Part shown: piece after piece, positions 10,817 through 49,303 of the stretch
How the letters are laid out: each line of letters begins with the position of its first letter
Position numbering within the stretch: position 1 is the stretch's first letter
Origin: Callorhinchus milii
Taxonomy: Eukaryota
Direction of reading: 5' to 3'
Assembly (NCBI RefSeq): GCF_018977255.1
Contig: NW_024704742.1
Coordinates: forward strand, 60,018,001-60,082,000
DNA: 64,000 nt
Position numbers and translations under genes: made by a program
The notes under the pieces: model-generated
Database searches by the model: none
Seen by the model: the letters and a program-made list of their open reading frames with translations, nothing else
What the model was told of the DNA's origin: nothing

Positions 10817-11171
10817 TAATAATAATAACAATCCTTGAATTTGATATAGCAACTTATCACAACTTCTAAACATCTCAAAGCACTTCATAGAATATACTGT
10901 AAAGTGAGCGAAACTCAGCAGCCAATTGCACACAACAGTGTCCCACAAACAGTTGTGGATTGATTGACCAAATATATCTATATTTTTTTAAGGATTATTA
11001 TCCCCGGAAAAGTGATCCGCCATTCAACTAACAACCGGGTTCTTACTTACTGCTAGCTAAACAGAGGTGTGTGGAGTAAGGAAACTTGCCCAACATGTTG
11101 CCCTGCCGGGAATCAAACCCAGGTCTTTCGAATGCGAGGCGAGTGCTCTAATCACTGAGCTACAGGACTCC
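10817..11171 (-). mobile_element. SINE family A, full length
   Basis: Runs from the (AAT)n tail to the head 'gagtgctctaatcactgagctacaggactcc'. Confidence 0.9.
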
Positions 11172-12602: not shown

Positions 12603-14058
12603 ACAACAACAACAACAACAACAAGATTGCATTTATAGAGTGCCTTTCACATCGGGAGGACATCCCAAGGCGCTGGACAGTTGGGTCGGGACCTGAGCAG
12701 GGGAGAAGTGGTCAGGGTGAGGGGAGGGAAAGGAGGGAGTGGAAGTGAGGAGGGGGTAGAGAGTCGAGAGGGGAGGTGAAGGCACGGTTGCAGAGAAAGG
12801 TCTTGAGACCGGCCTTGAAGGAGGAAAGGGAGGAAGCAAGGCTAAGGCACTGGGGAATGGAATTCCAGAGCCTCGGGGCTGAGAGGCTGAAGGCCCGGCC
12901 ACCGATGGTAGGGCGGTTGGGGCGGGGGATGTGGAGCAGACCGGAGCCAGAGGAACGGAGGGTACGGGCAGGTAAGTAGGGGGATAGTACGTCGAAGAGG
13001 TAGGAGGGAGCAAGGCCGTGAATGGCCTTGTAGGTGAGGATGAGGATCTTGAATTCGATCCTCTGGGGGATGGGGAGCCAGTGGAGGCGAGCGAGGGTGG
13101 GAGTGATGTGGTCGCGAAGCCTGGTGCGGGACAGTACATGAGCTGCAGAGTTCTGAATGACCTGCAGCTTGTGGAGGGAGGTGCCGGGAAGGCCGATGAG
13201 GAGAGAGTTCCCGTAGTCCAGCCTTGAGGTGATAAAGGCATGGAACAGAGTTTCAGCAGCGTGAGGGGTGAGGTAATGGCGTAGTCTGGCGGTGTTCCGG
13301 AGGTGGTGGAAGGCGGTGCCAGTTATGGCGCGGATGCGGGGAAGAAAGGACAGCTCAGGGTCGAACAGAACCCCGAGGTTCCTGACCGGCTTTGAGAGGT
13401 GGAGAGTGCAGCCTTGGATGCTGATGCTGTCAGCGCCTGAGGTGCGGAGGCGCTGACGTGAGCCAATCAGGAGAGCCTCAGTTTTACGCACGTTGAGCTG
13501 AAGAAAGTTGTCTCTCGTCCAGGACTCGATGTCGGACAGGCAGCTGTCAGGACATCGGTGGTCGTGGAATTGAGGGTAGAGGAGGAAAGGTAGAGTTGGG
13601 TGTCATCCGCATACATGTGGAAGTTAACCCCATGTCTGCGGATGATGTCACCACAGGGGGAGCATATAGAGGGTGAAGAGGAGGGGACCGAGGACAGAGC
13701 CCTGAGGGACGCCGCACAAGACAGTGCGGGGGGTGGAGAAAAAGCCGTTAGTGCAAACAAAATGAAGACGGTGGGAGAGGTACAACCTAAACCACTCAAG
13801 GACATGGCCTTGAAGGTTGAGGTGGGAGAAGAAGCGGTGGAGGAGGATAGTGTGGTCGACGGTATCGAATGCGGCCGATAGGTCGAGGAGGACAAGGAGG
13901 CAGAGGGAGCCCTGGTCGCAGATGGTCAAGATGTCATTAGTGACCTTGACCAGGGCGGTTTCTGTACTATGGGCAGCACGGAAACCCGACTGGAGGGGTT
14001 CAAATAGTGAATGGGTGGAGAGGAAAGTGCGCAGCTGGGAGGCGACGACTCTTTCGAG
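12603..14058 (-). mobile_element. Young 5'-truncated L2-clade LINE (RT domain to 3' end), frameshifted
   Basis: Three overlapping minus-strand ORFs give 'QSGFRAAHSTETALVKVTNDIL', 'LLDLSAAFDTVDH', 'GVPQGSVLGPLLF', 'YADDTQLY', 'SRLDYGNSLL' and 'LHWLPIPQRIEFKIL'. The (TTG)n tail is at 12603-12623. Confidence 0.96.
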
Positions 14059-14230
14059 ACACAGACACAGAGACACACACTCACAGACATAGAGAGACAC
14101 ACACTAACAGACACTGAGAGACACACATTCACAGACACAGAGGGACACACTCACGCAGAGACACTCATAAACACAGACACATATGGAAGAGACATGGACA
14201 GACTCACATAGAGACACGCACACAGACAAT
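14059..14230. repeat. CA/GA-rich minisatellite, right part
   Basis: The same unit as 11668-12602 resumes immediately after the LINE. Confidence 0.93.
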
Positions 14231-15983
14231 CGCAACAGCAGAGCCTCTGAGTGTGGCCCATTTGACACTTGTGTCACTGTGCAAATTTATGGTGGGTTTC
14301 TTGGGGGTGAGGGCCATTGTTGCTGAAAATGCAGGAAAGGCACAGCTGCTCTTCTCTATTGGTTCAGGTCATTAGTCAGCTAAAATATTATAAATGGGGC
14401 CCTCTCAAGGCTTCTCACAAACTTAATGTAGCCATATACCAAATGTAGGCGATTGTGTCATCTTCCAATCGAGGATTTCTCAGAAATCGTTAATTATCAA
14501 ACTAAAAACGTTATGTCAATATAAATTGGGCTTTCATTTGATGGGTGTTTGTGGGGCATTGTTGTTCACAAATATGCAATAATTCACTTTACACCAATTA
14601 CCTGTGAACCCATTTGAGATGATTTGACGTTATAGGTGTTATATCAAACACAAGGAGTAATATAATGTTTTGAATAATTGTATCTTTTTCAGAGTGCTTG
14701 CAGAACTGGGTCTTTAAAACTGTTCAGGATATTGTTATGAAAATAACACCAATCAGTGCAGCTGACATGGTAAATAGCATTTAATTGGATTCATGTCTTG
14801 CAAAGCACTTTCCAGAACACACAAAACAAAAGAAGGCCATTCAGCTCATTAAATCTGCTCCTTCTATAGCCTCAGCACAATATAATCCATCCTGGACTCT
14901 GTCCAAATTATTTAATCTCACGAGGAAAAGATCAGCAAATTGCTCTTCAACCTCCATCCTCTTCCCCCCTACCCCCCTCAAAAATAAAAGTAAGACAAGC
15001 GAAACTCAGAATGTCTATCTGACCTTAGAAATTACATTTTACACCTGTGACTAGTAGCCTTCTTTGATATGTGATTTTCATGGTCAAGCAGCTTAAAACT
15101 CATTATATTCCACAAAGCATTCAATCAATTCTGCCTTCATTCTGAACACTCAGTGTCACATTCTGTTAAAGATCTTTGAAATTACAGGACAAGAAGGTCG
15201 AGGTTTTCAAAATTTCTATATGTTTTCATTTTTTAAAAAATGTCCAGAAACCAGAAAAGGGTTATGTTTGAATCGATCACTGTTGAAATATTCTTTTTAC
15301 AAGAATGAGTGGTGCAAATGTTACCTTATTAACCTTTTCATTGAATACTCTTAATCATGGTGATGTTTTATGACTTGTGTCAGAATCCTTGCTGACCAAC
15401 CCAAAAGCTTTCTCCTCTGGGACCTGGTGTTGATTCTAGAGCAAACAAGTCTGATGAGACTTTTTGTCTTTTGAATGTAGGAATCCTACATGGATGATGC
15501 AGAGAGCCTGTGGAAATCTAGAGTTTAGGTTTAGGTATGCAATTACAGAACAAAACTGCTTTGGATTCATAATTAAATTGGCTTAGAGGGGCCACAAGAT
15601 AGTTGCTGTGAGAAACAGAAAATGTCAAAAGATCACAGAATCGCAGATCAGTTTGGATGAAGAAGGCTCTTCGGACAATCTGATTTCATGCCTCCAGAAT
15701 AACCATCTTATTGTCTTCCCATCACTGTATCAATCTAATGTTTCAATGAGTCCAGTCCCATGGTCTCATGTCACATTGATGAAGTAAGATTCTTTATTGA
15801 GGAGAGAATTTTGTGGCTGCTTGCTGTCACACGTTCCTGCCACATTTGCCAACAACACAAAAAAGTCACTACAATTGGCAGTAATTACCTTGGAAACCCT
15901 TTGAGACTTTACAATGTGATAATGTATTCTGAAATGCAATTTATTTTTGGTCACATATTTTGCAGTGAATAATGCTATATATG

Positions 15984-16226
15984 AACAGAAATCGCTGGGA
16001 ACACTCAGCAGGTCAGGCAGCATCTATGGAGAAAGGAAAGTGAGTCAACGTTTTGGGTCTACGACATGTCCACAACTGGACTAGCCCCAGCTCTGATGAA
16101 GGGTCATGGACCCGAAACGTTGACTCACTTTCCTTTCTCCATAGATGCTGCCTGACCTGCTGAGTGTTCCCAGCGATTTCTGTTTTTGTTTTCGGATTTC
16201 CAGCATCTACAGTATTTTGCATTTTT
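15984..16226 (+). mobile_element. Non-coding Penelope-like element remnant: inverted plus direct terminal repeat
   Basis: 15984-16065 is the near-perfect reverse complement of 16103-16184. The element contains a hammerhead core. A second family member is at 34332-34706. An inverted pseudo-LTR plus hammerhead is characteristic of Penelope-like elements. Confidence 0.72.
16089..16125 (+). ncRNA. Minimal type I hammerhead ribozyme motif
   Basis: Sequence is AGCT-CTGATGA(16093-16099)-A-GGGTC-ATG-GACCC-GAAA(16114-16117)-CGTT-GACT. It has both conserved core segments, a perfect 5-bp stem II, a palindromic ACGT stem III and a weak stem I. Confidence 0.68.
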
Positions 16227-17042
16227 AATGCTATATTTGACTTGGGAGTGCTGGATCCTCATATAAGGAGCCTGAAATTGAAACACCTTTCCACTCCTTG
16301 ACAAATACAAACTTCAGTCCCAAAAACTATGCTTAAAGCCTTCTCTTACCAAAAGTATATTTTCCACAAGAACTTAATCAATTCATTGAGATTTGAGTAA
16401 CCCCTATGGAAAAGTGATTGATGCCAAGCCCTTGGTAATTCAACATCATTTTTTAAAAAAACACTTTTTGTCATTTTTTTCATATAATTTAAATTCATCC
16501 TTGATAATCTATCAGAGTGTGACATTAACTAATGTTACGAGATCACTGCTGTGCTACATGGTCCTCAGGAGACAGATGAAGGAGCTCACGGCATTTCTGA
16601 CTGTTACATTTAACTATCTTCACAGTCATTGTGTTCAAACAGCTCAGGATACTGCTGATATGTTTGCCTCACAACCATTAGTATCCTGGCTGATTCCCTC
16701 CACCCCAAACCCAAGAGCGTTGAACCCAATCGCTACCTCAGCTTACACTGCATGTTCAAGGTGCCTTTGCACCACATATTGTGCCATATTCCTGATCAGT
16801 GCTTTGTCAAATCCTTAAAAGGAATGGCTCAGAAAAAACAGTTGATTTATCCAAACTTTATGAACTTTGTTTTAACCACTATCAAGGAAATTATCATAAA
16901 TGTACTGTACCTCTGAGTTGTTCTTTGGTCATTGTTTCTACATTTCGTCCTCCAGGCTGCTGGTTGGAAGTAAGCACTTTCTGTACATTTATCACCTAAC
17001 CTTGCAATGGCATTATGAAGTCCAGTGATATTTTATAATATT

Positions 17043-17395
17043 AATACAATAATCCTTGCATTTGATATAGCATCTTATCACATCTTCGAAACTCTCAAAG
17101 TGCTTCACAGAATATACTGTAAAGTGAATTGACTATTTTTGGGGGCAAGATGTGCGACAAAATTAGTCGTGGATTGAGTGACCAAATTATTATTATTATT
17201 TCTTTTCTTGAAGGGATTATTACCCCCAGAAAAGTGACCCCCTAATCAACTAACAACCGGATTCCTACTTCCTGCTAGGTAAACAGAGGTGTGTGGAGTA
17301 AGGAAACTTGCCTAAGGTTTCACCCTGTCCAGGAATCGAACCCAGGTCCTCTCACTTGTGAGGCGAGTGCTCTAACCATTAAGCTGCAGGACTCC
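17043..17395 (-). mobile_element. SINE family A, full length
   Basis: Runs from the tail to the head 'ggaatcgaacccaggtcc…gagtgctctaaccattaagctgcaggactcc', with an intact B box (GGTTCGATTCC on the minus strand). Confidence 0.9.
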
Positions 17396-17691
17396 ACATT
17401 TTGAATATGGAGCTGTGTCACATATCTGCAGTCATGAAGCATAAGATAATAAATGTTCAGAACTTTGCTTCTGTAATATTTAATATGATTCAACAATTCA
17501 GATGAATACCCAACTCGTTCAGTAAATTTCTCTGAGCCCTTCCCATGGTTTGTTGAGTATGGACAGAGCCCCGTGCGATACTAAACCAAACTGATAGGAA
17601 GATTCACATTGGCAATTTGTGCTGTTATAAGCATGGACAGGACGACAGGTGGGTGGTATAATTCATTGCAGTACCCATGTGTTATAAAAAA

Positions 17692-18015
17692 AAACTTGCA
17701 TTTGGTATAGTGCCTTTCATGTTGGGAGAACGTCTCAAAGTGCTTCACTGGATATACTCTAATGTGTGGTGTGTGTGTATGCTATATGTGCACATAGCAG
17801 TCAATTTGTGCAGTGGCCCGACCCATAGCCCTTAAGTGAATGATCAATTTTATCTGGGGCTTATTGGACAGAACACCGGGAGAAACTCTCTTCTTTTATT
17901 GAATAATGCCATGGGATCCTTAGCATCAACCTGAACAGGCAGGCATGACCACAGTTTTTGTCTCATCTTAAAGATGGTACCTCCAGCAATGCAGCACTGA
18001 GCTGAAGTGTCAGCT
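17692..18015 (-). mobile_element. Deu-domain SINE (family B)
   Basis: Contains the Deu core 'gccatgggatccttagcatcaacctgaacaggcag…ctcatcttaaagatggtacctcc' plus the tail. Confidence 0.75.
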
Positions 18016-20364
18016 TTCAATTACTCAACTGTCACTACACTTTACAGTAAATCCTGTGAAGTGTTTGAGATGTCCTTCATCAAATGCAAAGAGTATTATT
18101 GTTAAAATTTGACCATCACCATTGAGTGCGGAGAGCAATATTTGATGAAGCAGCAGAGAATGATTGTGCAACAAAGGTAGCCTGATGCCTGTACGATGAA
18201 CCAAAGGCAAATTACATTTGTATAGATGCTTTCACATCGGGAGGATATCCCAAAATGCTGAAACAAAGGTGGTCATGCTCAATTTTTGAGACTACTTAGC
18301 CCCAACCATGGTGCCAAACCTATTTGGTAACTATTATTTGCTTTTCACCATATTTTTTGGCTGGTGATAAATACTACATCACATGTTACATTTTTCACCC
18401 CAATAACTCTTTAATGAGAATCAAATAGCAGTATCACAGTAATGGAACTCTGTTAATAAGCAGTCTGTTGACTTGTCTACAGCCTAATCTTGATGTAAAT
18501 TTTATTAGATTAATAAAGATTTCCATTACTAAAGGAAAAATATTCTGTGCTTCCTATGTAAGTACAATTCAATCCTTATTAAAAGCATCTACTTAGATGG
18601 AATCGTATTACTCAATTTGAACTTGCACTTTAAACCCAATGGTATAAAAGATGCAAACATAAACAATATAATGTAATGCTGTTATATGAACCACAAAATT
18701 GTTGTTGCTCAATAGATTGGTACATTATTTTAGGAAATTGTTTCTGCTTGCTCTAGATTATAAATATAAAATAGCATCACATGTGTATAAGGATCACTGA
18801 ACAAAGATACTGCAGAACCAAAATGGACAGCTGTTTAACTTTAGTTCTGGAATAAAAAAAATACAAATAAGATTTAAAAGCAACCTTAAGGTGATCCTTG
18901 TGTTTCAACTTTGAACAAGGAGAATCAAAAATAGTTAAAGTACATTAAGTACAAATTCAACCCGAGGCTAGATTTATTCTGTTACCATTGCATTTCAAAA
19001 ATGTGTCAATTTCGTAAACACTGTCTTTAATTTTCTTCTGAGAAACAAAGAGAAAATGGGCTTTAAAGTTTAAGCTGAATTCAATAATTTGCATAAATTG
19101 TACCCACTCTGAAACGTTGTGCTGAAACAGTAAGTCTAAGCTCTGGTGGAATTTCATCCCACATATATTTATATTACTGAAATAAGAGGTAAGTGAAAAT
19201 GCATTTAACACTATAACCATACTCGCACTCATCACATTCTCCATTGCCTTCTGTAAATGTGGTCAAATAAAATCAGAGATTATTGCAGCTTCAATCATAT
19301 GGTACACTATCACTCAGTTCCTTTCATGTGTTTTTGTTATCAATGAATTCCCTTACCCATTTTTTGGAACCTCCAGCTATGAAGGCTAGATGGCTAGATC
19401 TTTCAAGGTTTTAATGGCATAATTTCCCCCTGTGTAAAGCATGCGAGTCTATGCTTCATCATACAAGCAATAGATACTTGATCTAGAATTTCCCTGCAAT
19501 CAAATGCAGATTATTTCAGGGAAGCTTGCAATAATGAAATCATCTAATATCTGTTATTGGATGGCATTGTGTGGTTCTGTCAGCTGTCAGTTTGTCTTAC
19601 TGATTTCAAAAGAACTATAAAACATACACTAAAAAGGTATAGTATTAAGATATCTAGACCCTCACTATTCAGTATTGAGGACTGAATCATTTTGGTGCAC
19701 CAGCTGAGCACTAGCAACAGCATGCAATAAAATCAATGTTGCTAGCTTTTATATCTGATCAAATGGTTGTGATTTAATTGCAAATTAATCTTTTCACTTT
19801 AGCTGTTGCTTTCGGAGTTCTTGTAGTTCAGAAACAAAATCATTGAATTACAGTAGGTGGTGAGCACAGGGAATGCAAAGGCCAAGAGTGTTTATTTAAT
19901 CCTAGGAAAAGCTCTATAGGAATGGATGGGGATCTGTACCTAACACAAAACCATTGTACAATCACCAAGGGTCAGGCAGTATTAGTTATTATCAAAGGCC
20001 TGCTTTGTGCTATACGCTGATACAGGTCACATCTGTCAGAAGAAAACTGATGAGTTCCCAGCTGACTAGTAGATGGACAAAGTGACAGTAAATGGAATGT
20101 GTCCCTCAGTCAGTGAAAGCAAGTGAATTCAGGAATGGAGTTTTCTTTTTCAGCTCAGTTCTATACAGCAGAACAAAGATCTGAGATTAATACAAGTTCA
20201 CATCAGAATAGCTATTCTTCTAACAGAAGGATTGTTACTTGTACCAGAAGAGTACTCTGACCTAAGATTACAGCACAACCAAATAAAATGTAGCAGAACT
20301 ATACAATAGATACAATGCCACAGAGGCTAACCTGCTTTCAATGAGAATAGTAAAATAAATAAAT

Positions 20365-20698
20365 AGTAACTCTTGTATTTGATAGAGAGACTTATCACAT
20401 GGCCATGGTCTCTCAAAGTGTTGGACAAGATTTTATTGTAAAAAATAATGACTGTGTATTTTTTTAGGCAAAACGCAGCACAGCAATGTCCCACAAACTG
20501 CATAAAGTGACTGATCAATTTTATTGGGGGGATTGTTGGCCAGGATACCAGGAGAAACTCTCTTCTCTTTTCAAATACTGTATTGCCATGAGATCTTCAG
20601 TGTCCACCTGAACAGGCAGATGGGGCCTTGACTTGAACGTCTCTTTCGGGTGATAGCAACTTCAACAACACAGCACTCCCCTAGCATTGCACTGGATT
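20365..20698 (-). mobile_element. Deu-domain SINE (family B)
   Basis: Contains 'ttggccaggataccaggagaaactc…gtccacctgaacaggcagatggggcc'. Confidence 0.78.
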
Positions 20699-21061
20699 CA
20701 CAGAAGCTAAGTTGCTCCTTAGTGAAAATGTTGTTAGTTTGATATAATTGTAAAGAGTCATTTTAAATATAAAAGATTGGCTGTAATTTGATTCATCTTG
20801 ATCCAATGCAAGGATTATAATCATATACAATCTTGATGTTGTAAATAAAATTGCACATTTTCCGTTTTACAAACTGTTAAAAACAGACACTATCACATAC
20901 CTAAAGAAAGGGTTTAAAATGTAGCAGGGATTCTGCATGTAAAATTAACCCATTATTTTTGCTTAACTCCAGGAATTATGACAACTTCAATATAGCATCC
21001 CTCACACAGGGCAACATCCCAGAGTGTTTGGACAGCTACCTCAATTCACATCATTAATGTA

Positions 21062-21435
21062 AATTGGAGCAGAGAAGGTTAAGAAGGGAATTGACAGAGC
21101 TTTACAAAATTATGAGGAGTTTTGAGAGGAAGAAAGTATTACAACTGGTAAGAGAGTTAGTGGCAAGGGGATATATATTTAAGATAGCCCTAAGAAGAGT
21201 AAAAAGGGAGCCTAGGAGAATGTTTTGGGATGTGGATTACCCTACCAAGCAAGATGGTAAAGGTAGATTCTGCTGTAGGTTTCAAGAGGGGAGTAGACAG
21301 GTACTGCATATGAAAGTTAGAGGTTTGAAGAATTATGCAGATAGGGCAGTGAAATTGAACATACAGCTTACTCTGAGAGCTGGTGCAGGCTCAATGGCCT
21401 GAATGACATCCTTCTGGTGTGGTAAATTTCTATGA
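21062..21435 (+). mobile_element. CR1-clade LINE 3' end
   Basis: 'LEQRRLRRELTELYKIM…RGYIFK' is the CR1 ORF2 C-terminus. It is followed by a CR1-type 3' UTR ('ggcctgaatgac…ttctatg'). Confidence 0.8.
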
Positions 21436-23206
21436 ATGTTCAGAATGTAATTTCAAGCCCAATGGAAAGTAAACAGACTTTGTATCTCTCAAACATCTCA
21501 AACACTTATGACATGTTTTTTATTCTTTCGATGGCCCTGTATTCACAAATGAGGGTTAGCCCTGAAATATGTTAATACATTTTCAGAAGTTGGAGGCTCT
21601 GAAATGGAGTTGTGATGTGATTCACTGACTGATTTATCACAATATTTTTTTTTGTTAAATAATTGCCTTGGATGACATTAACTTCACAGGTGAGATTGAC
21701 GGACACTTTTAAAACTAGAAAGGATTTGGAAATTGCAAAGAAGGCAGTTAATTACAAGCTAGGAACAAACATTCAAACTCATTGGGTAGCAATTTTATTT
21801 TGTTTTGTGAAGGTTATCTAACAATTGCTTTCAGAGAGCGTTTACGTTAAACACCTGTCACTCACATCCTGGATTACCATCTACAGAGAACTGTCAGAAT
21901 GCTATGATGCTTTGTGCTAACACCAGGAACTTTGCTTCGGATTATTGACAATGAAATCTGTCTTTATTTGGTTGTTTGACAACTCTACTATCACAATGGT
22001 CATGATCTTTTAATTGTAACTGTAACTCCATAACTGCTGTTGTAGAAAATGTGAAATAGTTTAGCATTGTTTATGTCACTTTATACCAGGAAATGGTCCA
22101 AACATCTTTTATTATCGAATCATAGACATTTACAATGCCACCCTTTGAGTTTGCACCAGATCTCAGAGCTTTGCGCTATCCCATTCCCCTTCAAGCCTCT
22201 ATGTTTCATGTGTCTGTTTACTACCCTCTTCAAACCCACAATGGACTCTACCTCTATCACCTTACGTGACAAGATTGCCTGTATATTTATCTCTCTGTAT
22301 TAATCCTTAGAGATTATTATAATCAAGCTAAATCCAGCTAAATGTATTCTTTATCATCTGTACTTTAGAAAAGTTAACTGTAAAAGTCATTGAAAATAGT
22401 AACTCATGACATATCCCACAAACAGATGTTATAATAATATAATAATAATCCTTGTGTTTGATATAGCAGCTGTCATGCTAGGAGGAATTGTCAAAGCTTT
22501 ATCCACTTTTAAAACTATTATACTGACTACATATTTTGTAGGCAAACACAACAGTCAATTTGTGCACAGCAAAGTTCTGTGTATTTCAACTCAAACTGCC
22601 CAAAATAACATTGAACCCTAGACTCAATCCAATGGCTGATGTCCTTATTTCCTGACATCAAAAGAATCAATAGGGAAAATATTAATTTGTCAAGTAACAT
22701 TATTGTCAATTGTATTTATAAAAATATCTCTGTTTTCCCAGGCTTTGCTACAATATGTATTTATTATTATATTTGAAGCAATCGTTAGGTTGACCTCTCC
22801 AGGATTAATGATATTGTTCATTGATTTTCCTATTCTTGAAGACTCAATTGACTGCAATCTACACTTTTAACATTGATCTTTTGGTGGTGGGTAGATCTGA
22901 AGCTAATTGTTCAGTGGTATTGCAGAACTCTGGTGAGAATATTCTTGGGAGAATAATTCGCCCTGGGTCTAGATTTAGTTTATTTACTTAAATTTTAGAG
23001 CATCCAGAGTTCAATAAATTATTGAGGATACTTAACAACTGGATCAGGTTGCCAGGAAGGATGTTTGAGGGCAGGAAACTGGAATCATTTAGAAGCAGCT
23101 TGTTGCTCTGATGGGAAGATGCAAAGGTAAGCATTCTGAAAGGGTGAGATCAGACAGGCCAAAGAGCTTTCTACATCCAAACCGATCGTGGGATCTTTGG
23201 ATTTTT

Positions 23207-23620
23207 GTCACCCTGGCTCAGTGGTAGCACTCTCACCTCTGATTCAGAAGGTTGTTAGTTTAAACCCCACATTGGGATTTGGAAACATAGTCTAAGCTGA
23301 CATTCCAATGAAGTACCAGGGGTGTACTACATTGTCAGAGATGCTGTCCTTCGGATGAAACTTTAAACCCAGGTCCTGACTGTATGTTTAGGTGGATGTT
23401 AAAGATCCCTTGGCTTTAATCAAAAAGAGAAGGGAATTTCTCCTGGTGTCTTGGACAAGAAATCCCCTCAATAAAAAATGGTCACTCACCCCTTGGTTGG
23501 TGGGAGACATTACTGTACTCAAGCTGGCTGCTGTGTTTTGCAAAATAAACAGTCCATTTTATAATATATACTGTGAAGCGCTTTGAGATATCTCGACAAC
23601 ATGATAAGATATCAAATGTT
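23207..23620 (+). mobile_element. Deu-domain SINE (family B), near full length
   Basis: Contains the head 'tggctcagtggtagcactctcacctctgattcagaagg', the core 'gtccttcggatgaaactttaaacc…aggtggatgttaaagatccc' and an L2-like tail. Confidence 0.82.
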
Positions 23621-24341
23621 ATTGTAATTCAGTCTTATCTTTGGAGTCAGTATTCCATAAGTCAAGAAATAGGCTTCAAAGTCATGACTGCATTTAAGAA
23701 TTTGTCAAATTCTAGATGAATTAAAATTCTACATGAATAAAGTAGATTCAAACCAAGGTGGAATTTCTACCTTAGTGTATTGGTACATCAATCTCATTCA
23801 GACCTCTGCTCCTCAACCATCTCCCAAGCTTATTTCAGAAATTATATCAATCCTTGGTAGCTGCAGATATCTGGTTTCACAAAAATTTTCAATGAAAAAG
23901 AAGTATTTGTTTTTATTAATATTTAACCTTTGAATTTATGTTTCCTTAAGGAGTCAATTGATTTTGACTTTGAGTCCAATTTGCAATTTTACTAACAGAA
24001 ATTCAAAGATTTAAATTGATAAATAAATAAAAACCTCTATAATAATCTAAAATATGGAATGACATTTGTATTCCGCACGCCCTACATTAATCATCATTTT
24101 GTGGTGTTTGTACATCTACATTGTGAATAATGAATCAAAATTCTACCTGGAATAAAATTTGGATGAAAATGATATGACATATTGGACAGATACTACAATC
24201 TTTCTTGAAAATGGCAGACTCCTCTTTGATAACAAGAAGGTGTTCTTTAAAAGTCCAAATAAATGTTCAACCCCATGATATTTTTCTGAATTTGATAGAA
24301 AGCAATTTTAAACCTTTGTTTTCAAGGCAAAGTCAATATAA

Positions 24342-24970
24342 ATAATAATCCTTCCATTTGACATAGAACCTTTCACATTGGAAGGATGTCTTAAAGTGCT
24401 TCACATGATTTACTGCAAAGGGTAGTGACCATGCCTTTTGTAGACATATATAGCAGACAATTTGTGCACAGCAATGTTCTACAAACATTCAATAACATTA
24501 GAGATCCCATGTCCATATTTGAAAGGAGAAGGGAGGTTCTAATAATGCTCACCACCACCCCATAAAATTGGGCATTCATTTCATGGCTGTTTGCTGTGTG
24601 CAAATTGACTGTGGCGTCCGCTGACAAAACAGTCATTGCACTTTACAGTGTGTCTTGTGAAGCTTGTTGGTTACAATCCTCCTTATGTAAAAGACACAAT
24701 ACCAAATATAAGGATTATGATTATTAATAACTTTTTCTGAAAGATTGTTAACCAAGATACTCAGAGAAATTCCTTTCTCTTTTAAAGCCATGCTATCTTC
24801 AATATTTGACATCTCATCTGAAGAAAGGCACCTCAATGCAGTGCAGGTCACTTTCAGCACTGTATAGGAATGTCAGCCTAGACTATGTGAGTTCAAAGTC
24901 CCTCACTTGAAGCTTCAACAAAGAACCTTCTGACTCAGAGGTAAGAGTGCCTCTAAATGAGCCAAGCTGA
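24342..24970 (-). mobile_element. Deu-domain SINE (-) interrupted by a 5'-truncated (+) copy at about 24500-24730
   Basis: Order is a minus tail at 24342-24495, a plus-strand 3' half ending in (ATT)n, then the minus body and head ending 'ctgactcagaggtaagagtgc…gagccaagctga'. Confidence 0.7.
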
Positions 24971-25565
24971 GTTACTGACGAATAAAGTATATTCCAAAGA
25001 ATATATAAACAAAATTGATATAAGTTTCAGTAAGGATTTTTTAAAAGAGAAATAGAAAATATATTAATTTCTCTATAAAATCTAAAATTTTCTAGAAATG
25101 ATTTACAGTCTCCCGTAAAAGGACTTTTATTCCATTAATTTTCTCGTTACACATTGTTCAGCATGCAGTATCTTCACTACTTAAACCCACCTTTGTCTGG
25201 AATCTGTCTGAAAATGGATATAGAAATCTGCATCAATTATCTAGCAAAGAATGAAATTGATTCATGAGAAGCTATTATATGAACTAATTTGAAAATGATT
25301 CGTCAATGTGGATATATTATTTGCACATTAAACAATAAATCTTTGTAATGGGTATCGCTCCATTACGTTTAGCCGGTAATTTTGCATATAAGACAGATGC
25401 CACAACATAAAAATAATCAAACTATGGAATAGCTTGAAGTGTGGATGATGATTATGAGTCTGTGATATGCATCAACGAAAGTTATAAACGTAAGAAAAAT
25501 AACATTTAGTCAGGTTTCTTGAACTATGATTGAGGTGGAGTATTGAGCAAATTATTAAGCATGCA

Positions 25566-25808
25566 GGGGGAGAAATTTTACCTGGGTTAAGTTTGACTCT
25601 ATTTTCTTAGCATTACCAAACATCCAATATTTGGTTAATTTTTAAATTCAACTGTTATTTTGAAGCTGTGTTTTCTCTGAGTTTCTTTCAAGAACTGCAG
25701 AAAACTGGCATCAAAAGTAAGATTGAGTTCAACAATTTGCCAAATTATGCACACTCTGAAATGCTGAGAAAAGAGAGTAGATCCAGATCCAGGTGGAATT
25801 TCTCCCTC
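25566..25808. mobile_element. Candidate old MITE with ~22-bp terminal inverted repeats
   Basis: Left end GGGGGAGAAATTTTACCTGGGT against the reverse complement of the right end, GAGGGAGAAATTCCACCTGGAT, matches at 18 of 22 positions. The interior is non-coding. Confidence 0.5.
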
Positions 25809-25849
25809 ACAATATTCTGGTATGATAGTTATGTGAAATCTATGTGGGA

Positions 25850-26475
25850 GAGTGGCCAAAGGCATGGTTAAAGAGGAAGGTCTTCAGATAGGACTTGAAG
25901 GAAGCAAGAAAAGGGGTGTGGTGGATAGAATGCAGGATAAAGTTCCAGAGTATGGGGCAGAGATGCTGAATGCCCGACCGCCAATGATGGGGTGGGACAT
26001 GCAAGGGACCAGAAGTAGGCCGGTGCCCACCGAGCGGAGGGAGTGGAAGGGCCGATATGGGGTTACTAGGTCAGAGAGGTAGGAGGGAGCGAGACCGTGG
26101 CGAGCCTTGTCAGTAACAACAAGGGTTTTGTACTCGATTCTCTCAGGAATGAAGAGTCAGTGAAGCGGGGCAAGAACAGGGGTAATGCGATGAAGCCTGG
26201 TGCAGGAGAGGACCCGAGCTGCAGAGTTCTGAATAATCTGCAACTTGTGGAGGGAAGAGTTGGGAAGTCCAGTGAGCAGGCAGTTGACGTGGTCAAGCCG
26301 GGACCTAATGAAAGCATGAACCAGACTCACGGTGGCCTGCGGTGAGAGGCAGTGGTGGAGGTGGGCAATGTTGCGGAAGTGTGGAAAGGTGGAATGGGTC
26401 ACGGCACGAATGTGGGTTTAGAAGGATAGCTAAGCGTCGAAAAGGACTTTGAGGTTTCGGATTGGTTCGGTGAAG
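25850..26475 (-). mobile_element. Older L2-clade LINE 3' fragment
   Basis: Encodes 'LVHAFIRSRLDHVNCLLTGLPNSSLHKLQIIQNSAARVL', followed by C-terminal motifs. Confidence 0.88.
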
Positions 26476-27064
26476 TAAGCTTCCATCAAGCTTCTATCTT
26501 TCATATACCTGTCAAGTTCCCTCTTGAAACCCACAATAGACTTTGTGTGTATACCTTACTTGGCAAGGATCATCTTACTTGGTGGGAGAATAACCGTGAA
26601 CATGAAATAATTGAATCGAATAATCTGTTTCCATGCTGTCACGTTCAATGCAATTCTATCTAGCTTCTCAATTCTTTTCATTATTTTAAACAGTTCAATC
26701 AGATCATCCCTATGACAATGCTTTATATCGTAAGATGCTACTATTCGGTCTATCAATGATACTCCTGACATGTTTTACTTGATTACTTTATTGTCATATA
26801 GCGGCATATCAGATTGTGTAATAACCTTAGATTACAAGCGTGATTCATATTACATTTCATGAAGCAAGTAAATGCTACTCCTTAAATATCTGCAGTTATA
26901 AAACCGGATAACTACTCATGTTCTCTGTAACATCCCTTTTCCTCTGGCACCTCTGGGCAAGTGAGGGAAATATGAGCAGGAGGGTAATATCGGTATCCAA
27001 TGGAATCTAACTATTCTGGGAAATGAAAGTGTGTGGATATTTCGCTGAAGTCATGTTAAATAAA

Positions 27065-28012
27065 TAATAATATTCCCTGCATTTAGTACAGCATGTTTCA
27101 CATTGGAAAGATATTACAGGATATACTGTATTTATGCACAAACACTGCAGATAATTTGTGCACAGCAATGTCTCATAAATAGCTATGAAGTGAATGACAT
27201 TTTAATTCTGTGAAATTGTTGCCCAAGACACTTGTAGAAACTCCCTCCTTGTTTTGAATAGTGCCATGGAAATTGTAACCTCCACCTGAATCAGCAGACA
27301 AAATCTCGGTTTAATGTCACATCTGAAGGACAGCATCTCTAACAGTGCAGCGTTGAAAGTCTCAATGTGCGCTAAAAGTTTTGAGCCCACAACCTTCTGA
27401 ATTACAACAACAACAACAACAACAAGATTCCATTTATAGAGCGCCTTTCACGTCAGGAGGACGTCCCAAGGCGCTGCACAGTTGGGTCATGACCCGAGCA
27501 GGGGGGAAATGGTCAGGGTGAGGGAGGGAAGGGAGGGAGAGAGGAGGGGGGAAATGGTCAGGGTGAGGGGAGGGAAGGGAGGGAGCGAGGAAATGGTCAG
27601 GGTGAGGGGAGGGAAGGGAGGGAGCGAGGAGGAGGAAGAGAGTCGAGAGGGAGCTGAAGGCACGGTCAAAGAGAAAGGTTTTGAGACCGGCCTTGAAGGA
27701 GGAAAGGGAGGAGGCGGCGAAGGCACTGGGGGATGGAGTTCCAGAGCCTCGGGGCTGAGAGGCTGAAGGCCCGACCACCGATAGTAGGGCGGTTGGGGCG
27801 GGGGACGTGGAGCAGACCGGAGCCAGAGGAACGGAGGGTACGGGCAGGTAGGTAGGGGGATAGTAGGTTGGAGAGGTAGGAGGGAGCGAGGCCGTGAATG
27901 GCCTTGTAGGTGAATAATAATAATTTGGTCCACAATCCATGAACTGTTTGTGGGTTACTGCTGTGTGCAATTGAATTAGAGATGAGAGTGCTAACAACTG
28001 ATCCCACCTGAC
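27065..28012 (-). mobile_element. Deu-domain SINE split by the L2 insertion at 27405-27971
   Basis: The head reads 'caaccttctgaatta' on the left and resumes as 'tgaattagagatgagagtgctaacaactga' on the right. Confidence 0.75.
27405..27913 (-). mobile_element. Young 5'-truncated L2-clade LINE with (TTG)n tail and triplicated 3' UTR unit
   Basis: Encodes 'TYKAIHGLAPSYLSNLLSPYLPARTLRSSGSG…'. 'gaaatggtcagggtgaggg' occurs three times. TSD TGAATTA lies at 27398-27404 and 27972-27978. Confidence 0.93.
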
Positions 28013-28189
28013 ACCTAAATTCAGCTGTGATTGCCCTCACAGTCCTATTACCGCCTGACACTCGCTGTCTCGGCTCACCATGAAAGATGGTCACATGATT
28101 GAGATACCAGAGCCATCACAGAACTGTTTGCCAGCATGAGTCAATGCCTTCAGGAGAAAACAGCAGTAAATAAAAGGCAATTACTATAT

Positions 28190-28362
28190 TAATAATAATC
28201 CTTGCATTTAATATAGTGCCTTATCACGTCCTTGAGAACTTCATAGAATATATTGTAAAATGAATGGACTGCATTTTGTGGGCGAAGTGCAGCAGCCAAT
28301 TGCACACAGCAGTAACCCACAAACAGTTCATGGATTGTGGACCAAATTATTATTATTTTTCT
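28190..28362 (-). mobile_element. SINE family A, 3' half
   Basis: Runs from the (AAT)n tail to 'ggattgtggaccaaattattatt'. Confidence 0.82.
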
Positions 28363-29470
28363 TGCAGGGTTTTAGGCACAAACAAGGAGATATTCTGTGA
28401 AGTGCTTTGGGACGTCTTGAAGACATGATAAGGCGTTATTTCAAATGGAAGGATTATTATTATTATGTATTCTTGAAGGTAGGGGTAAAGTGGCTTAAGA
28501 CTCAGCTGTCAATGGTGGGCCACCTAAATTACCAAATCATTCCTCTCCCTGGTTCCTTTCCTTAGACACTGCTCTATTCTGGAGAAATGTAGCTTGTAAT
28601 CTTCTATGGAGCAAGAGTTTCATAGCAAGAGTGAGCCTTTAAATAGCTTGAATGATTCTTTTCGACAGTTGAAAAGATTATACGACAAAGTGTAAAAGGA
28701 GCAGACTAGCAGAAACGTAACCGTCTTTCCAGGTCCTTCAGAGAGGAATTAGAGCCTTTCTCTGCTCAATACTGCAGTTGCCTTTAATTTGCCACTGTTC
28801 ATGCGTGATGTCCATCAGATAATAATGTGTCTGTGGAGTTTCAAAAGGAAAGTAAAACATAACATAATTTCAAAAATATATTCCGATATAATAGGCTGAA
28901 ATATTTTATTTATGTTTTGAAACCATAGACATCCTAGTACATGGAAAGAAATCATCAATGGCAATTGGACAGATCAGTTGAGAAATGTTCTTTCCTCCAT
29001 GACAGCAAAGATAAATTTCAGTGGAGCTGTCAAAGATTTGCTGACGCACTTAAAATGTGCCCAGCGTTATACAGCAGGGTTATTGAACTTCAATTTTAAC
29101 CTGATAGGCTATAAAAGCAGGGTTTCCTTTTGGGATACTACCACAGAATATAATCAGCAGCAGCCTGAAAAAACAGAGCAGACAGAATGTGGGCAGTGGT
29201 ATTGGAAAGGACAGACCTCATGAATTCATGGTGGAGAATTCATGCACAATTGATGGAGCTCATTGTGCTGAAATGGAGACAGGAATGACATTTTCATCTC
29301 TTCTGAGCTACAATTCAGCTGCCAACTCAAAGATAATAAAAAAAAAGTCACCAAGCTGTGGAAATCGAACCAAAGCTTTTCAATCCACTTAGTAAGAACT
29401 AACAGCAAATGTTAACAAAGGTCCATCTCAAGCATAGCTCTTTTACCACACTTTCAGTCAACATATATAA

Positions 29471-29783
29471 ATGATAATAATCCTTGCATTTGATATAGTG
29501 CTTTTCACGTCTTCTCAACGTCTCAAAGCGCTTCACAGAATAGACTGTAAATTGAATTGCCGTATATTTGTGGGCGAAACGTGGCAGCCAGTTGTGCACA
29601 GCAGTGTCCCACAAACAGTCGTGGATTGAAAATGACCAATTTTTTATTATTGTTTTGTTTTGGAAGGATTATTATTAGGGGTGTGGAGTAAGGAAACTTG
29701 CCGAAGGTTTCGTCCTGTCTGGAATTGAACCCAGGTGTCTCGCTTGCAAGGCCAGTGCTCTAACCACTGAGCTACAGGACTGC
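29471..29783 (-). mobile_element. SINE family A (short-body variant)
   Basis: Runs from the tail to the head 'gtgctctaaccactgagctacaggac'. It lacks the central segment, as do 37948-38256 and 42446-42729. Confidence 0.88.
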
Positions 29784-30198
29784 ACTTTCCCCTCTCCACG
29801 CGTCCTCTCTCAGCTCCCACCTCCAGCTTGGATGCTTTGTAAATGCTTTGTAAATGTAAATTGTATAGTGTTCCAAAACCCTTCAGAACACTATTATTAT
29901 GCAGGCCACTTTAATATAATAATGCTTCCATTTTTTGGTGTATGCTTTAAGAGCAGGATTATTTTTTCCCCATTTACTAGGCATACTATTTTGCAACAAT
30001 AGGAGAAATTCAGGGCATCTTGAAAGGGAATTTATTTTAAAATGATAAATTGCAACAGACTAAACTGTTCGGCAAATTTTTTTTCAGTTATCAAAGTTCT
30101 AGATAACTTTATCTAGAATACTTTAGCCCAAGGGAAGCAGTGCTCGCTGGTTCGTAGCTATTAGGTTTTGTAGCAAAAAGGTTGGAATAACGCTCCTC

Positions 30199-34018: not shown

Positions 34019-34331
34019 TCTCATAGCACAATTGATGTAATAATTGTCACATTGAAATCTTTATGAAACTTCACAAATGTTGCACTTTCTGGAATTATTA
34101 GATTTAATAACCCTCTCTCTGTTTTTTTTAGCAACATCAATATTAACATGCAGGAATTGTTACATAACTATGCACATAGAAATGATTGAGTTTATTACAG
34201 GAGTGTGTTGTGATTCTCAGTTACTGAATATGTATTCAGAGGTGACAACATTTATGCTAATCGAAATTATAATGTGCAGATTCTCAGGTTAGTTTGGCAT
34301 AAGTATGAGAATATCCAAGTCAGTTTAGTGG

Positions 34332-34706
34332 AGATGCTGGAAATCTGAAACAAAAACAGAAGTCGCTGAGAACACTCAGCAGGTCAGGCAGCATCTATGG
34401 AAAAAGGAAAGATAGTCAACATTTCGGGTCCACGACCCTTCGTCGGGACCTTCGTCATAGATCCGAAACGTTAACTAACTGCTGTTTTGGTTTCAGATTT
34501 CAAGCATCTGCAATGTTTTGCATTTTGTTCATATTTAATTCACTGCCACTTCTCTTCTAGGAATACCTACCTTGAAGAAGTTTTGCTCTTTTCTTCGACA
34601 AGTTCTGACCAAGGGTCGTGGACCCGAAACATTTGCTTACTTTCCTTTCTCCATAGGTGCTGCCTGACCTACTGAGTGTTCCCAGCGACTTCTGTTTTAG
34701 TTTCAG
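34332..34706 (+). mobile_element. Non-coding Penelope-like element remnant: one inverted and two direct terminal repeat pieces
   Basis: Same family as 15984-16226. It has an inverted unit at 34332-34448, an internally deleted direct unit at about 34454-34526, and a direct unit at about 34601-34706. Each carries a mutated or partial hammerhead motif. Confidence 0.72.
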
Positions 34707-36085: not shown

Positions 36086-37307
36086 ATGGACCTCCTGGAC
36101 CTCTCCGCCATGTTCGACACAGTCGATCTTGCCATCCTCCTCCACCGCCTTTCCTCCATCATCCACCTCAGTGGGACCGCACTCGCCTGATTCAAGTCCT
36201 ACCTCACAAACCGCCAGCAGTACATCTGCACAAACGGCTTCTCCTCCCACTCTCACCCGATTACCTGTGGGGTACCCCAAGGATCCATCCTTGGCCCCCT
36301 CCTCTTTCTGATCTACATGCTCCCTCTTGGGGATGTCATCCGTAGACATGGGGTACATTTCCACATGTACGCAGACGACACCCAATTCTATTTTCCACCT
36401 CTCTTTGTGACCCCCAGTCCTCTGCTGTTCTGTCAGCCTGCCTGTCAGATCTCAGGGGCTGGATGAGCGCAAATTTCCTTCAGATGAACATTGACAAGAC
36501 AAAAGCCATACTCTTTGGCTCTCGTTAACCTCTAAAATCTCACAGCTCTCACCTCCTCCACCTACCCGACCTCTCCCTAAAACTCTCCGAACCCGTTCGC
36601 AGATTCGATCCCCAATTATCCTTCCTCCTCCACAACCGATCCATCACCAGCACTGCTTTCTTCCACCTCCGATGTATCGCCCGTCTCTGCCAATATCTCA
36701 CTCCAAAAGCCACTAAAATCCTGGTCAATGCCTTTGTCACCTCTCGGCTGGACTATTCTAATGCCCTCCTCACCGGCCTCCACTCCACTACCATCCATAA
36801 AATCCAGATAATTTAAAACTCTGCCGCCCGCATTCTCACCCATACCAAACTCCCCTCCCTGATCACCCCATTCCTTACCAGACTGCACTGGCTGCCTACC
36901 CCAGAGAGGATTGATTTCAAGATCCTCACCCTTGTATTCAAGTCCCTGCACTCCTCTGCACCCCCCTACCTCTCTGACCCCTTCTCTCCTCAAAACAGTA
37001 CCCGTTGCCTTCGTTCCCCCGGATCTAGCCTCCTCCTCATCCTCCTCGTCCTCTGCTCCACCCTTGGTGGCCATGCCTTCAGCCATTATGCCCTGAGGCT
37101 CTGGAACTCCCTTCCTCACTCCCTTCGCCTCGTTCCCTCGCTTCCTATTTTTAGGTCTCTGCTAAAGACCTTTCTTTTCAACCGGGCCCTTGGTCACCTT
37201 CCTCCCCCTTCCCTTGGCTCGGCTCCAGGATCTGTTACTGTAAAGTGCTCTGAGACGCCGTCTGGCATGGAGGGCACTGTATAAATCCAAGTTGTTATTG
37301 TTGTTGT
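36086..37307 (+). mobile_element. Older L2-clade LINE, RT domain to 3' end
   Basis: Encodes 'LLDLSAMFDTVD', '[13 protein letters not shown]', 'YADDTQ', 'SRLDYSNALL' and 'LHWLP', with stops and frameshifts. The tail is 'gtataaatccaagttgttattgttgttg'. Confidence 0.93.
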
Positions 37308-37414
37308 GACAAATCATCACTAAAAACAGAAGTGGATATAAGCTAGTTTATTTTGGTGTCCCCAGAATATTGCTTCAGCAATATTCTATTATGTGGAAGT
37401 GTGTAAGTCTGGCC

Positions 37415-44780: not shown

Positions 44781-45110
44781 CCTTATCATTTTTTGAGAAG
44801 TCTCAAAGCACTTCACAGAATAAATTGTAAGGTAAATTGACTGTATTTTGTAGGTGAAAAGTGGCAGCCAATTGCACACAGCAGTGTCCCTCTAACAGTT
44901 GTGGATTGAGTGATCAATATTCTTTTTTAAGGGATTATTATTCTTGGAAAGTTATCCGCCAATCGACTAACAACTGGGTTCCTACATACTGCTAGATAAA
45001 CAAGGCTTGTCGAGTAAGGAAACTTGCTTAAGGATTTGTCCTGCCTGGGAATCATACCCAGGTCCTCTCGCTTGCGAGACGAGTGCTCTAACCATTACAC
45101 TACAGGACTC
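44781..45110 (-). mobile_element. SINE family A nested in the head of a family B SINE (about 44538-45145)
   Basis: The family A body and head lie between the family B body (ending 'gggcttgaacccatg') and the rest of its head ('agagtgctaccaactgagccaagct'). Confidence 0.8.
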
Positions 45111-45771: not shown

Positions 45772-46143
45772 TAATAATCGTTGCATTTGATACAGCGCTT
45801 TATCACGTCTTCGAGACATCGCAAAGCCCTTCACAGAATATACTGTAAAGTGGAGTGGCTATATTTTGAGGGCAAAATATGGCAGCCAATTGCGCACAGC
45901 AGGGTCCCACGCACAGTCTTGGATTGAGTGACCACATTATTATAATTTTTTTGAAGGGATTATTACCCCCAGAAAAATGATCCCCCAATCGACTAACATC
46001 CGGGTTCCTACTTACTGCTAAATTAACAGATGCATGTGTGATGTGGAGTTAGCAAACTTGCTTAAAGTTTAGGCCTGACTTGCCTGGGAATCGAACCCGG
46101 GTCCTCTCATTTGCAAGGCGAGCACTCTAACCACTGAGCTGCA
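45772..46143 (-). mobile_element. SINE family A, full length
   Basis: Runs from the tail to 'gggaatcgaacccgggtcc…gagcactctaaccactgagctgca'. Confidence 0.88.
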
Positions 46144-46745: not shown

Positions 46746-48028
46746 AGCATTACCAGTTTTCAGATGTATACCCTCTGTGTTTCCTCCAACATAAAGCACC
46801 TGATACAGATCCCTTTGTGAATCTGCGCAAAATGAATCCCATCCACTGCTTGGTCAGTATACTTGCCACTCTTATTGTTTGGTCTGATGTCACAGTGGTG
46901 TGGAGGATAAATATTAATGTCTCTGTATCAAGAGATATTAGCTCTTATGTTAGAATTTCTTCCTCACAAAATATCCTTATCGCTGCTAAGAACATGAGTG
47001 GAGTAAGAGTAAACACAAATTTTCTATTGTTGTTTGAGCAGTCTCAACAGTCCCATTTTTGTAACAATGGTTTTATGAAGATTTTACTCTTGAGACATTG
47101 TTTAATTTAAAAAATTGCACTCAGATGTGTTTTAAAGAAAGCACTTGTCGGATGACAATTACAAATAAAATGTCAAGGGTGCACAGAAAATGAAAAACAG
47201 AGCATGGAGAATGTTTTAATGCTTGTGGATTGATAATAATAGCAATAACATAATTTGTTCAGGGAATTCATCTATTACCAGCTTCACTCATGCCAGTAAT
47301 AACCACCTCAGGAATGCTAATGACTACAATGCTCCCCCACTCCAATAATGTTATTGTCTTATTATTAGCATCGCCAGCACTAAGCACCTAAATGTGAGTT
47401 AGTTTGATTTTTTCTAACAAAGCATGAATCATATTGCAAGGTTGGGTGAGTTTGTTATCAACTGGTTTATCCGATCTCAGATTAACAGGGCTTGATTTTC
47501 AATTGATAATAAATACAGATAAAATGCTAATTGCCTCTAAGAGTGTATAATAACACAGCTAGATTTGACAGTGTTAATGATGATTTAGTGTAGATGGGTT
47601 GGGTAATGTATTGTTAAATACAAAGTAAATAGCTTTGGCAATCTATTGTGTAATGAAGTACGGCATGGATGTATTAATGAGAACGTACTGCAGCTGGAAA
47701 TCACTGATAATTGGATAAAGGTTGGTCTGTGAATGATAATAACTGTTTAATGCGGATACTTTTCATGGTCATGCTATTAGTGCCTATCAGTTAGAATCAA
47801 TCATAATTATGATCAATTATTATTAATAATAATAATAATAATAATATTGACGGTTGCCAGGACAGTAAATATGAATATTTATCAGGACCACAAGAATTTC
47901 TCAATTAATCATATGTTAATTGATTACCTTTACAGCTGATTTGATTTTTGCTGATAACGACGCTTTGTTTCTTTTTGGAAAATTTGCAAGTTATCCCACC
48001 CCTCCCCCCTCCTCCCGCCCGCCGCCAA

Positions 48029-48217
48029 CCTCCAGTCATATAGGACCTTCAATACATCGGCATCATTCTCAAGCTATAAGGTGCACAAGTGACTTTCTCT
48101 CCAGAACGGTGTTCTAAACTGGCTACTAGATAGATAAAAAAGATTGTCATTAACTCAACAATTAATTTTCTCACTGCTTTCTGAAAATGTATCTTCCTCG
48201 TATGAAATGAAGAACGC
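48029..48217 (+). repeat. Long inverted repeat, left arm
   Basis: Reverse complement of 49304-49509, with about 7 substitutions counted by eye. Confidence 0.95.
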
Positions 48218-49303
48218 TCCGTGTAAGGAATCAAGAACTCAACACTGTGTTATACCGGTTTATAGCACAGTGTGTCACTGTCACTGCATCATCAGGGCCA
48301 GGGCCATTAGTATGTTTAGTAAAAGTAATACAATCAACTTTGATGTATTAATAAACTTCACGTCAGATTCGAGCAGTTTAATATCATGCCTGGAATTTAT
48401 TTAAGGTAAAATAGTTACATATAAAATATGTTATTATTCCCTTGCTTTTGCTCTCCATAGCCTATATAAACTGAAACCATGCAAGTGTGGAATTTTAAGT
48501 AGTTTGGTTTGGAAACTCTTCAGTATGAAGATGGGTTTCTAGTTTGAGGCATCTAGTGGACACAAAATATACCATTACTCGACAGAGAATGTTGGGCCTC
48601 TGGCAATTTTAATGTGAGTTCATGTGGAGAAGGAGGTGCACAAAATGCCTGGCCTACAAGATTTTGCCTACCTCCCACGTTGGCGAAACATTTAGATTAT
48701 TATGCTCAGTGCTTCCCACTGACCAAGGCAGGGAAGACAGCAACAGTGCAATACACAGAGAGTCTTTGAGGTGAATCCACATCAGTTCACCATTATAACG
48801 CATCACTACCGAGAGTAAAATACTATACTGAGCAATTCCCACCAATGTCACAGCCAACTCTGAGAAGAGAAAATAGATTTGCAGATAGAGGGAGAGGCTG
48901 GTCACTTTATTTTCCTTTCTTTTTTGATGGTGGAGGGATGGGGGAGGGGGGTACAGGAGATTAGTAAGGTGGGTGTTCTGGAATGATGAAGGCCTTCTTC
49001 ATTCCAAACCATAATAACGTATTTAATGTAGTAACTTATTTAATGATGTAAATGTAAAACGAATATGTTTCAATTAATTGAAATGGCAGAAATGTTATGG
49101 TTGTGTTGATCTGATGGGATTCAAACTGCCAGCAAGAGTGAAGATGACAACAAAAGCATCAGGGAAGATACTAGATTTGCCTCTTACCACTATTGAAGTG
49201 GTTGAGAGATAGGGGTGATGGTTAAGTGCTTTCTGCCAAATGCAGCTGAATATCAATAGCCAATTTGATGCACTGGTTAATTGACAAGGGAATTTGTAAC
49301 CAT

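Follow-up and report, generated by a model that had tools for sequence, protein, structure and literature searches.

A head-to-head insertion carrying a hammerhead motif

The window, i.e., the whole 64-kb stretch of DNA analysed here, contains a short insertion in which two arms meet head to head, the strand of the ribozyme motif in the right-hand arm being taken as sense. Another locus of this family, in a more decayed state, lies at 34326-34703. The features are as follows.

15970 to 15983, + strand: target-site duplication, left copy, 14 bp, AT-rich; first 11 bp perfect, and 15984/16240 may extend it to 15 bp
15984 to 16065, - strand: inverted 5'-truncated arm, an antisense copy of 16103-16184, without CUGANGA and tail, the equivalent of G12 changed to A
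16066 to 16083, no strand assigned: private 18-nt filler at the head-to-head junction
16084 to 16225, + strand: sense arm, the terminal module of the family (pseudo-LTR end) according to contig evidence, 142 bp
16089 to 16125, + strand: minimal type I hammerhead motif, from a motif pattern scan, numbered by comparison with PMC4209133
16185 to 16225, + strand: one-sided 41-nt tail, found by arm comparison in the sense arm only
16226 to 16239, + strand: target-site duplication, right copy, from repeat comparison
34326 to 34703, no strand assigned: second, more decayed family locus, from blastn at 85-90% identity

Positions 15970-15984 and 16226-16240 are identical at 14 of 15 positions, giving a duplication of 14 bp with one mismatch, the first 11 bp of which are 82% AT. 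The 14-mer, with at most one mismatch allowed, occurs at only two places in the window, and only 24 of 2,000,000 random position pairs matched equally well. Since the duplication abuts both ends, the element comprises 15984-16225 (242 bp). The original prediction did not mention the duplication and had set the element at 15984-16226.

The inverted repeat of ~82 bp that had been claimed was confirmed: 15984-16065 and 16103-16184 are complementary at 79 of 82 positions, and alignment of the arms also supports the claim that the left arm is antisense to the 3' half of the ribozyme. All three differences (16106, 16108, and 16114) lie within the 12 nt nearest the center, and one of them turns the antisense GAAA into AAAA. 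The outer 70 bp are identical, which suggests that the two arms derive from a single template or have since been homogenised. At several sites common to both arms, e.g., 16177, the letter here is not that of the family majority. The sense arm extends 41 nt beyond the point where the antisense arm stops. The filler between the arms overlaps an 8-bp palindrome (16063-16070) and includes a 5-bp mini-hairpin (region 16068-16081). Its segment 16068-16076 is a 9-nt near-copy of antisense stem II, with 8 of 9 positions matching the copy at 34428-34436. Judged by these short matches, the filler may have been templated from the hammerhead motif itself.

The motif in the sense arm has an intact minimal core, as originally predicted. 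A sequence check located the core boxes CTGATGA (16093-16099), GAAA (16114-16117), and CGTT (16118-16121), the extra A (16100), and a stem II of five Watson-Crick pairs (GGGTC, 16101-16105; GACCC, 16109-16113) with the loop ATG. Stem I is formed by AGCT (16089-16092) and GACT (16122-16125). Two of its pairs are Watson-Crick, the closing pair is a U-G wobble, and a C-A mismatch occupies the remaining position; the mismatch had been predicted and the wobble had not. Stem III is absent and is replaced by the palindrome ACGT (16117-16120), in which 16118-16119 correspond to the 15.2-16.2 C-G. Comparison with PMC4209133 assigns C3-A9, the extra A, G10.1-C11.1 (G16101-C16113), G12-A14, A15.1, C15.2, G16.2, U16.1, and U17. 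The predicted cut falls after the triplet GUU, at 16121. Hammerheads with a GUU triplet are cut more slowly than those with GUC. GUU is among the cleavable NUH sites listed in PMC3138052.

Minimal hammerhead ribozymes (min-HHRs) sit in the pseudo-LTRs of metazoan Penelope-like elements (PLEs), as described by Cervera and De la Pena (2014, PMC4209133). The motif at 16089-16125 shares with the min-HHRs in that description the type I layout, the conserved boxes (CUGANGA and GAAA, with U16.1 and H17), the unpaired nucleotide between A9 and 10.1, the G10.1-C11.1 pair with a stable helix II, the palindromic 15.2-16.2 without helix III, and a short helix I. A helix I of 4-5 bp fits the family majority, while this copy retains two pairs, one wobble, and one mismatch. 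The occurrence of min-HHRs mostly as solitary copies, and also as opposite-strand pairs, is likewise in keeping. The motif differs from the published ribozymes in its helix II (5 bp here versus 7-8 bp in the Schistosoma examples), in the stem I mismatch, and in its PLE context, which is here putative. In its passages on hosts, PMC4209133 names fish, coelacanth, Xenopus, and reptiles, not this family. These traits support the assignment to the Penelope-type minimal type I hammerheads that the original prediction had made.

To identify hammerheads in the window, we scanned both strands of the 64 kb for CTGAnGA, a stem of at least 4 pairs, and GAAA. This custom scan found two sites, 16093 on the + strand and 43861 on the - strand, the latter without the CGTH end. 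In 100 dinucleotide shuffles of the window, the mean was 0.37 sites for this pattern and 0.01 sites per window when a 5-pair stem and a [C]GTH end were demanded. We concluded that the hammerhead motif at 16093 is beyond chance. Rfam models, by contrast, gave no hammerhead: at gathering score the window matches were five tRNA-like SINE heads only, and at E values up to 10 the eight weak matches near the element, led by two miRNA hairpin models, included no ribozyme. Such silence would be expected for a hammerhead motif that lacks stem III.

Isolated CTGAnGA boxes without a complete hammerhead, at 15452-15458 and 43861 (- strand), are likely due to chance. Another repeat family carries a GGGTC-n-GACCC palindrome like stem II, with no hammerhead boxes, at 2005-2016, 2274-2285, 12683, and 27484-27495. 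The five SINE heads belong to a tRNA-derived family with a shared body, all on the - strand (11098-11169, 17329-17385, 29710-29781, 45037-45108, and 46080-46143). Outside the window, pattern scans for the motif returned 0 loci in viral contigs and 0 in metagenome contigs (two patterns). A single match in a prokaryotic genome, an isolated 22-nt stretch with nothing else alike around it, was dropped as chance.

The family in sequencing contigs and at a second locus

We aligned contigs of four public sequencing runs to 15800-16420 at 80% likeness and obtained 11,055 family contigs from run X1, 10,325 from X3, 2,646 from X15, and 25,611 from X6. Run X1 may be the assembly's own sample, X6 carries another organism label, and the RNA label of X15 is a guess. 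Summed depth in X1 was 98,838 to 370,710 over 16094-16198 and 91,831 over 16199-16219, compared with 4.7 to 6.0 in the unique flanks, and it was back at flank level after 16240. The ratio to the flank at 16128, about 48,000-61,000, is not a copy number and is read only as tens of thousands or more; the family is very high-copy. Heterogeneous loose ends occurred behind 16225 in X1, X3, and X15. Contigs of X1 contain both insertion junctions and contigs of X3 the left one, and no joint skipping the insertion, as expected from an empty site, occurred among the 15 joints listed (305 more exist). Run X15 contains family contigs and almost no cover of the flanks of 15984-16225 and is hence silent on transcription at the locus. 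Being contigs, these data reveal neither the ends nor the strand of any RNA.

The contigs also provide the majority letters of the family. At 16091 the majority is T (97-99% of depth in all four runs), with which stem I pairs fully (A-U, G-C, U-A, and U-G); this copy has therefore lost one stem I pair, and its C-A mismatch is nearly private. Other majority differences from this copy are C at 16097 (61-70%; the free position N7), G at 16106 (61-74%; loop II), and the letters at 16177 and 16194. N7 is the only core position among the variant rows listed (there are 31 more), and the family appears to retain the hammerhead core; of the five family arms found in the window, one has it complete.

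Some other marks lie in the sense arm. A 27-codon frame, below the length usable in protein searches, starts at the ATG at 16145. The stretch 16121-16147 (+) resembles a splice acceptor in having branch-like sequence (TTGAC/CTCAC), a run of pyrimidines, and a TAG ahead of that ATG, and 16170-16196 (+) is a second acceptor-like, T-rich run that ends in CAG in the family (16194 is A in 96-99% and G in this copy). If these stretches were real acceptors, the parent's ribozyme would lie in a 5' intron; against this, the first AG is missing in 36% of the X6 depth.

Depth across the filler was 32-58 in X1, compared with 1e5-4e5 in the arms, and the filler (16066-16083) is thus not family sequence. 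Among the 15 joints listed (305 more exist), 8 skip between arms; on the inner side they end at equivalents of 16115-16136, and their sense sequence begins anywhere from 16088 to 16136. None of these 8 matches the junction at 16066-16083. Junctions vary among copies, and the fold-back was therefore built differently in different copies. The original prediction had described a non-autonomous, retrozyme-like family of ~240 bp. No fixed 240-bp layout emerged from the contigs: only the module at ~16084-16225 is shared, the filler is private, junctions vary, and there are no tandem units.

The second locus, at 34326-34703, consists of an antisense arm (34326-34444; 119 bp, with most of the tail), an internally deleted sense piece (34454-34526), and a further sense piece (34601-34703), the two sense pieces being separated by 74 nt of other sequence. 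A complete hammerhead core is present in none of the three pieces. The junction differs from that at 16066-16083; it has a short repeat, and the turn is at stem II. No clear target-site duplication was found around this locus, the longest match being 7 bp.

These layouts bear on whether the insertion might be a DNA transposon of the MITE or fold-back type, in which the inverted repeats are long and terminal and the hammerhead-like motif would have arisen by chance. The long inverted repeat, small size, flanking duplication, and high copy number would all suit such an element. Its repeats are not terminal, however, as the right arm stops 41 nt before the duplication; arm length differs between loci (82 bp here versus 119 bp for the antisense arm at 34326-34444); the layout is not fixed, junctions being variable; and the motif is expected by chance at a rate of 0.01 per window. 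A 14-bp duplication is also longer than is usual for TIR superfamilies. We consider this explanation extremely improbable.

The 5' edge of the module bears on its autonomy. Depth in X1 falls from 288,757 at 16128 to 29,795 at 16097 and 7,922 at 16091. Upstream of 16084, 57 contigs of X1 and 45 of X3 continue with shared sequence (agreement, 0.77 and 0.74), which means that a longer parent exists; before 16092, 208 contigs of X1 and 203 of X3 carry unrelated sequence (agreement in X1, 0.37). The drop at the ribozyme's 5' edge and the heterogeneous ends before 16092 also fit a short non-autonomous template. In that case the family would be a true non-autonomous PLE derivative, a ~140-nt ribozyme-plus-tail module with its own transcription, mobilised in trans, its fold-back made anew at each insertion. 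The steepness of the fall between 16128 and 16091 and the many contigs that start at the 5' strand of stem I, with unrelated sequence upstream, speak for such a module, as do the description of pLTR sequences alone as mobilisable in trans (PMC3846280) and the proposal that vertebrate retrozymes derive from pLTRs (bioRxiv 10.64898/2026.07.22.740005). The contigs that reveal a longer parent argue against it, as does the report that PLEs are normally heavily 5' truncated (PMC8557442 and PMC8969392), and the depth fall is probably in part an effect of alignment edges and CpG decay. Taken together, we regard a trans-mobilised module as distinctly unlikely.

RNA folding and prospects for cleavage

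We computed equilibrium folds, without proteins, for RNA of the element. The + strand folds into a single hairpin (-170.9 kcal/mol; z score, -19.9), while the sense arm alone is unremarkable (-35 kcal/mol; z score, -0.27). The pair probability of stem II was 0.00 for the full element, 0.00 for a transcript that stops at 16130, and 0.49 without the left arm; that of stem I was at most 0.016 even without the left arm. When two copies of 16085-16130 were cofolded, the minimum-energy structure was not the hammerhead dimer fold. The - strand lacks CUGANGA and hence has no hammerhead core.

Published tests of related ribozymes give a similar outlook. In the experiments described in PMC4209133, no cleavage was seen with single min-HHRs and weak cleavage with dimers; the anole PLE ribozyme needed protein (PMC11167929); and eight of nine Xenopus dimers showed no cleavage in the data of bioRxiv 10.64898/2026.07.22.740005. 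At 16089-16125 there is no tandem partner, stem I is damaged, and an antisense arm lies upstream, which makes cleavage here unlikely. The ribozyme is predicted by these folds to be inactive at this site, and the likeliest RNA-level product, if any, would be a long double-stranded hairpin. The original prediction that the RNA could either self-cleave near 16121 or fold into a blocking hairpin did not hold as a balanced choice, stem II pairing being 0 whenever the left arm was present.

That choice had been part of a wider proposal, a fixed fold-back retrozyme of ~240 bp whose RNA switches between self-cleavage and the blocking hairpin. The complete core, the antisense arm covering the 3' half of the ribozyme, and the family contigs in run X15 (with its guessed RNA label) are consistent with this. 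By definition, a retrozyme consists of tandem units that contain complete ribozymes (bioRxiv 10.64898/2026.07.22.740005 and PMC7229834). The element resembles the non-LTR retrozymes described by Cervera and De la Pena (2020, PMC7229834) and Li (2026, bioRxiv 10.64898/2026.07.22.740005) in being small, non-coding, and pLTR-related, with a type I hammerhead and a long duplication. Those retrozymes, however, form head-to-tail tandems that give rise to circular RNAs, with mostly canonical ribozymes in PMC7229834, whereas 15984-16225 has one minimal core in a solitary head-to-head unit. At least two head-to-tail units, each with a complete ribozyme, are the mark of a retrozyme; one core and no tandem unit were found. 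Against the proposal there are also the private filler, the absence of the junction from all eight skip-type joints among those listed, the different junction at the second locus, and the gap between -170.9 and -35 kcal/mol, which leaves no competing state. We consider a fixed retrozyme very improbable.

Probable origin of the insertion and a possible turn at stem II

The best explanation, which we hold to be probable, is that 15984-16225 is a heavily 5'-truncated insertion of an endonuclease-bearing (EN+) PLE, with a ribozyme predicted to be inactive here, the PLE class being assigned from the RNA motif and the architecture alone. Insertions of EN+ PLEs are described as 5' truncated, often with an adjoining inverted truncated copy and a tail of 30-40 bp on one end (Craig 2021, PMC8557442; Goubert 2022, PMC8969392), and rotifer Penelope copies are described as having an inverted pLTR, a duplication of 8-10 bp, a 31-bp tail that is optional, and palindromes where copies meet head to head (Arkhipova 2013, PMC3846280). 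In the present insertion we likewise found an AT-rich target with a duplication around the unit, an inverted, 5'-truncated copy placed head to head, a tail on one arm only, and a palindrome at the junction. It differs in having no open reading frame (ORF) between the arms, the whole unit being 242 bp, in its longer duplication (14 bp versus 8-10 bp in the rotifer cases), and in a tail of 41 nt, one base above the published 30-40 bp.

The two arm ends can be compared with in vitro work on Poseidon of Anolis carolinensis (PAc; Frangieh 2024, PMC11167929). As described there, the anole element makes cuts in both strands of AT-rich DNA, reverse transcription starts from two internal sites downstream of the ribozyme, and the PLE tail, a 30-40 bp extension, is the stretch between the two start sites. 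The insertion shares with PAc an AT-rich target and a ribozyme just upstream of two tail-defining end points; these end points, ~63 and ~104 nt past the cut site, differ from those of PAc. Furthermore, the PAc ORF starts at stem II, according to PMC11167929, whereas no long frame starts in the motif here.

By analogy with PLE biochemistry, the element's GIY-YIG nuclease would have nicked the two strands of an AT-rich target ~14 bp apart, and a cDNA would have been primed from each target end. Starts of reverse transcription ~63 and ~104 nt downstream of the ribozyme cut site would account for the short arm and the tailed arm. Synthesis of each cDNA would have ended early, within the ribozyme or at its edge, and the two heads would have been joined head to head via a short filler. 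The hammerhead would then be a passenger from the parent's pseudo-LTR, and any read-through RNA from the left flank would form the 82-bp hairpin as the ribozyme emerges.

No PLE ORF for a reverse transcriptase (RT) or GIY-YIG nuclease was found in 69 of the 76 window frames of at least 90 amino acids, scanned against Pfam; the scan left out 7 frames in the low-complexity stretch 12633-14103. The single RT match in the scanned frames (36191-36463; Pfam RVT_1; E, 3.9e-10) is a piece that we take to be LINE-like by its motifs. It was rejected as a PLE partner because it belongs to a LINE-like fragment at about 36090-37310. This fragment (+ strand) is decayed and 5' truncated, with the RT piece and a short-repeat 3' end.

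The type of ribozyme was described in 2014. A literature search for the family in cartilaginous fish, the host group that the repeat's sequence suggests, listed general genome papers only, and a search on junctions at the ribozyme listed none. The family may already be named in Repbase or Dfam or in the supplements of PMC4209133 and the 2026 preprint.

Both loci in the window turn inside the motif, and their junctions carry what may be short repeats templated from stem II. In other copies, the junctions among the joints listed lie in or just behind the motif; these joints are a biased sample, as only those with both sides inside the aligned stretch are visible. These observations raise the idea, to our minds doubtful, that the hairpin of stem II, and not cleavage, marks where family cDNAs stall, snap back, and join head to head. 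If so, the motif would be kept for a role in integration at the level of DNA or RT, and PLE hammerheads could be conserved and yet barely cut.

As found, the insertion is one of very many stubs of a known class of retroelement and matters little in itself. It offers a small, tidy example for the question of how head-to-head insertions with one-sided tails arise in PLEs. If junctions proved to cluster at stem II genome-wide, beyond what ascertainment produces, the puzzling hammerhead of PLEs would gain a testable role, for which the in vitro PAc system exists.
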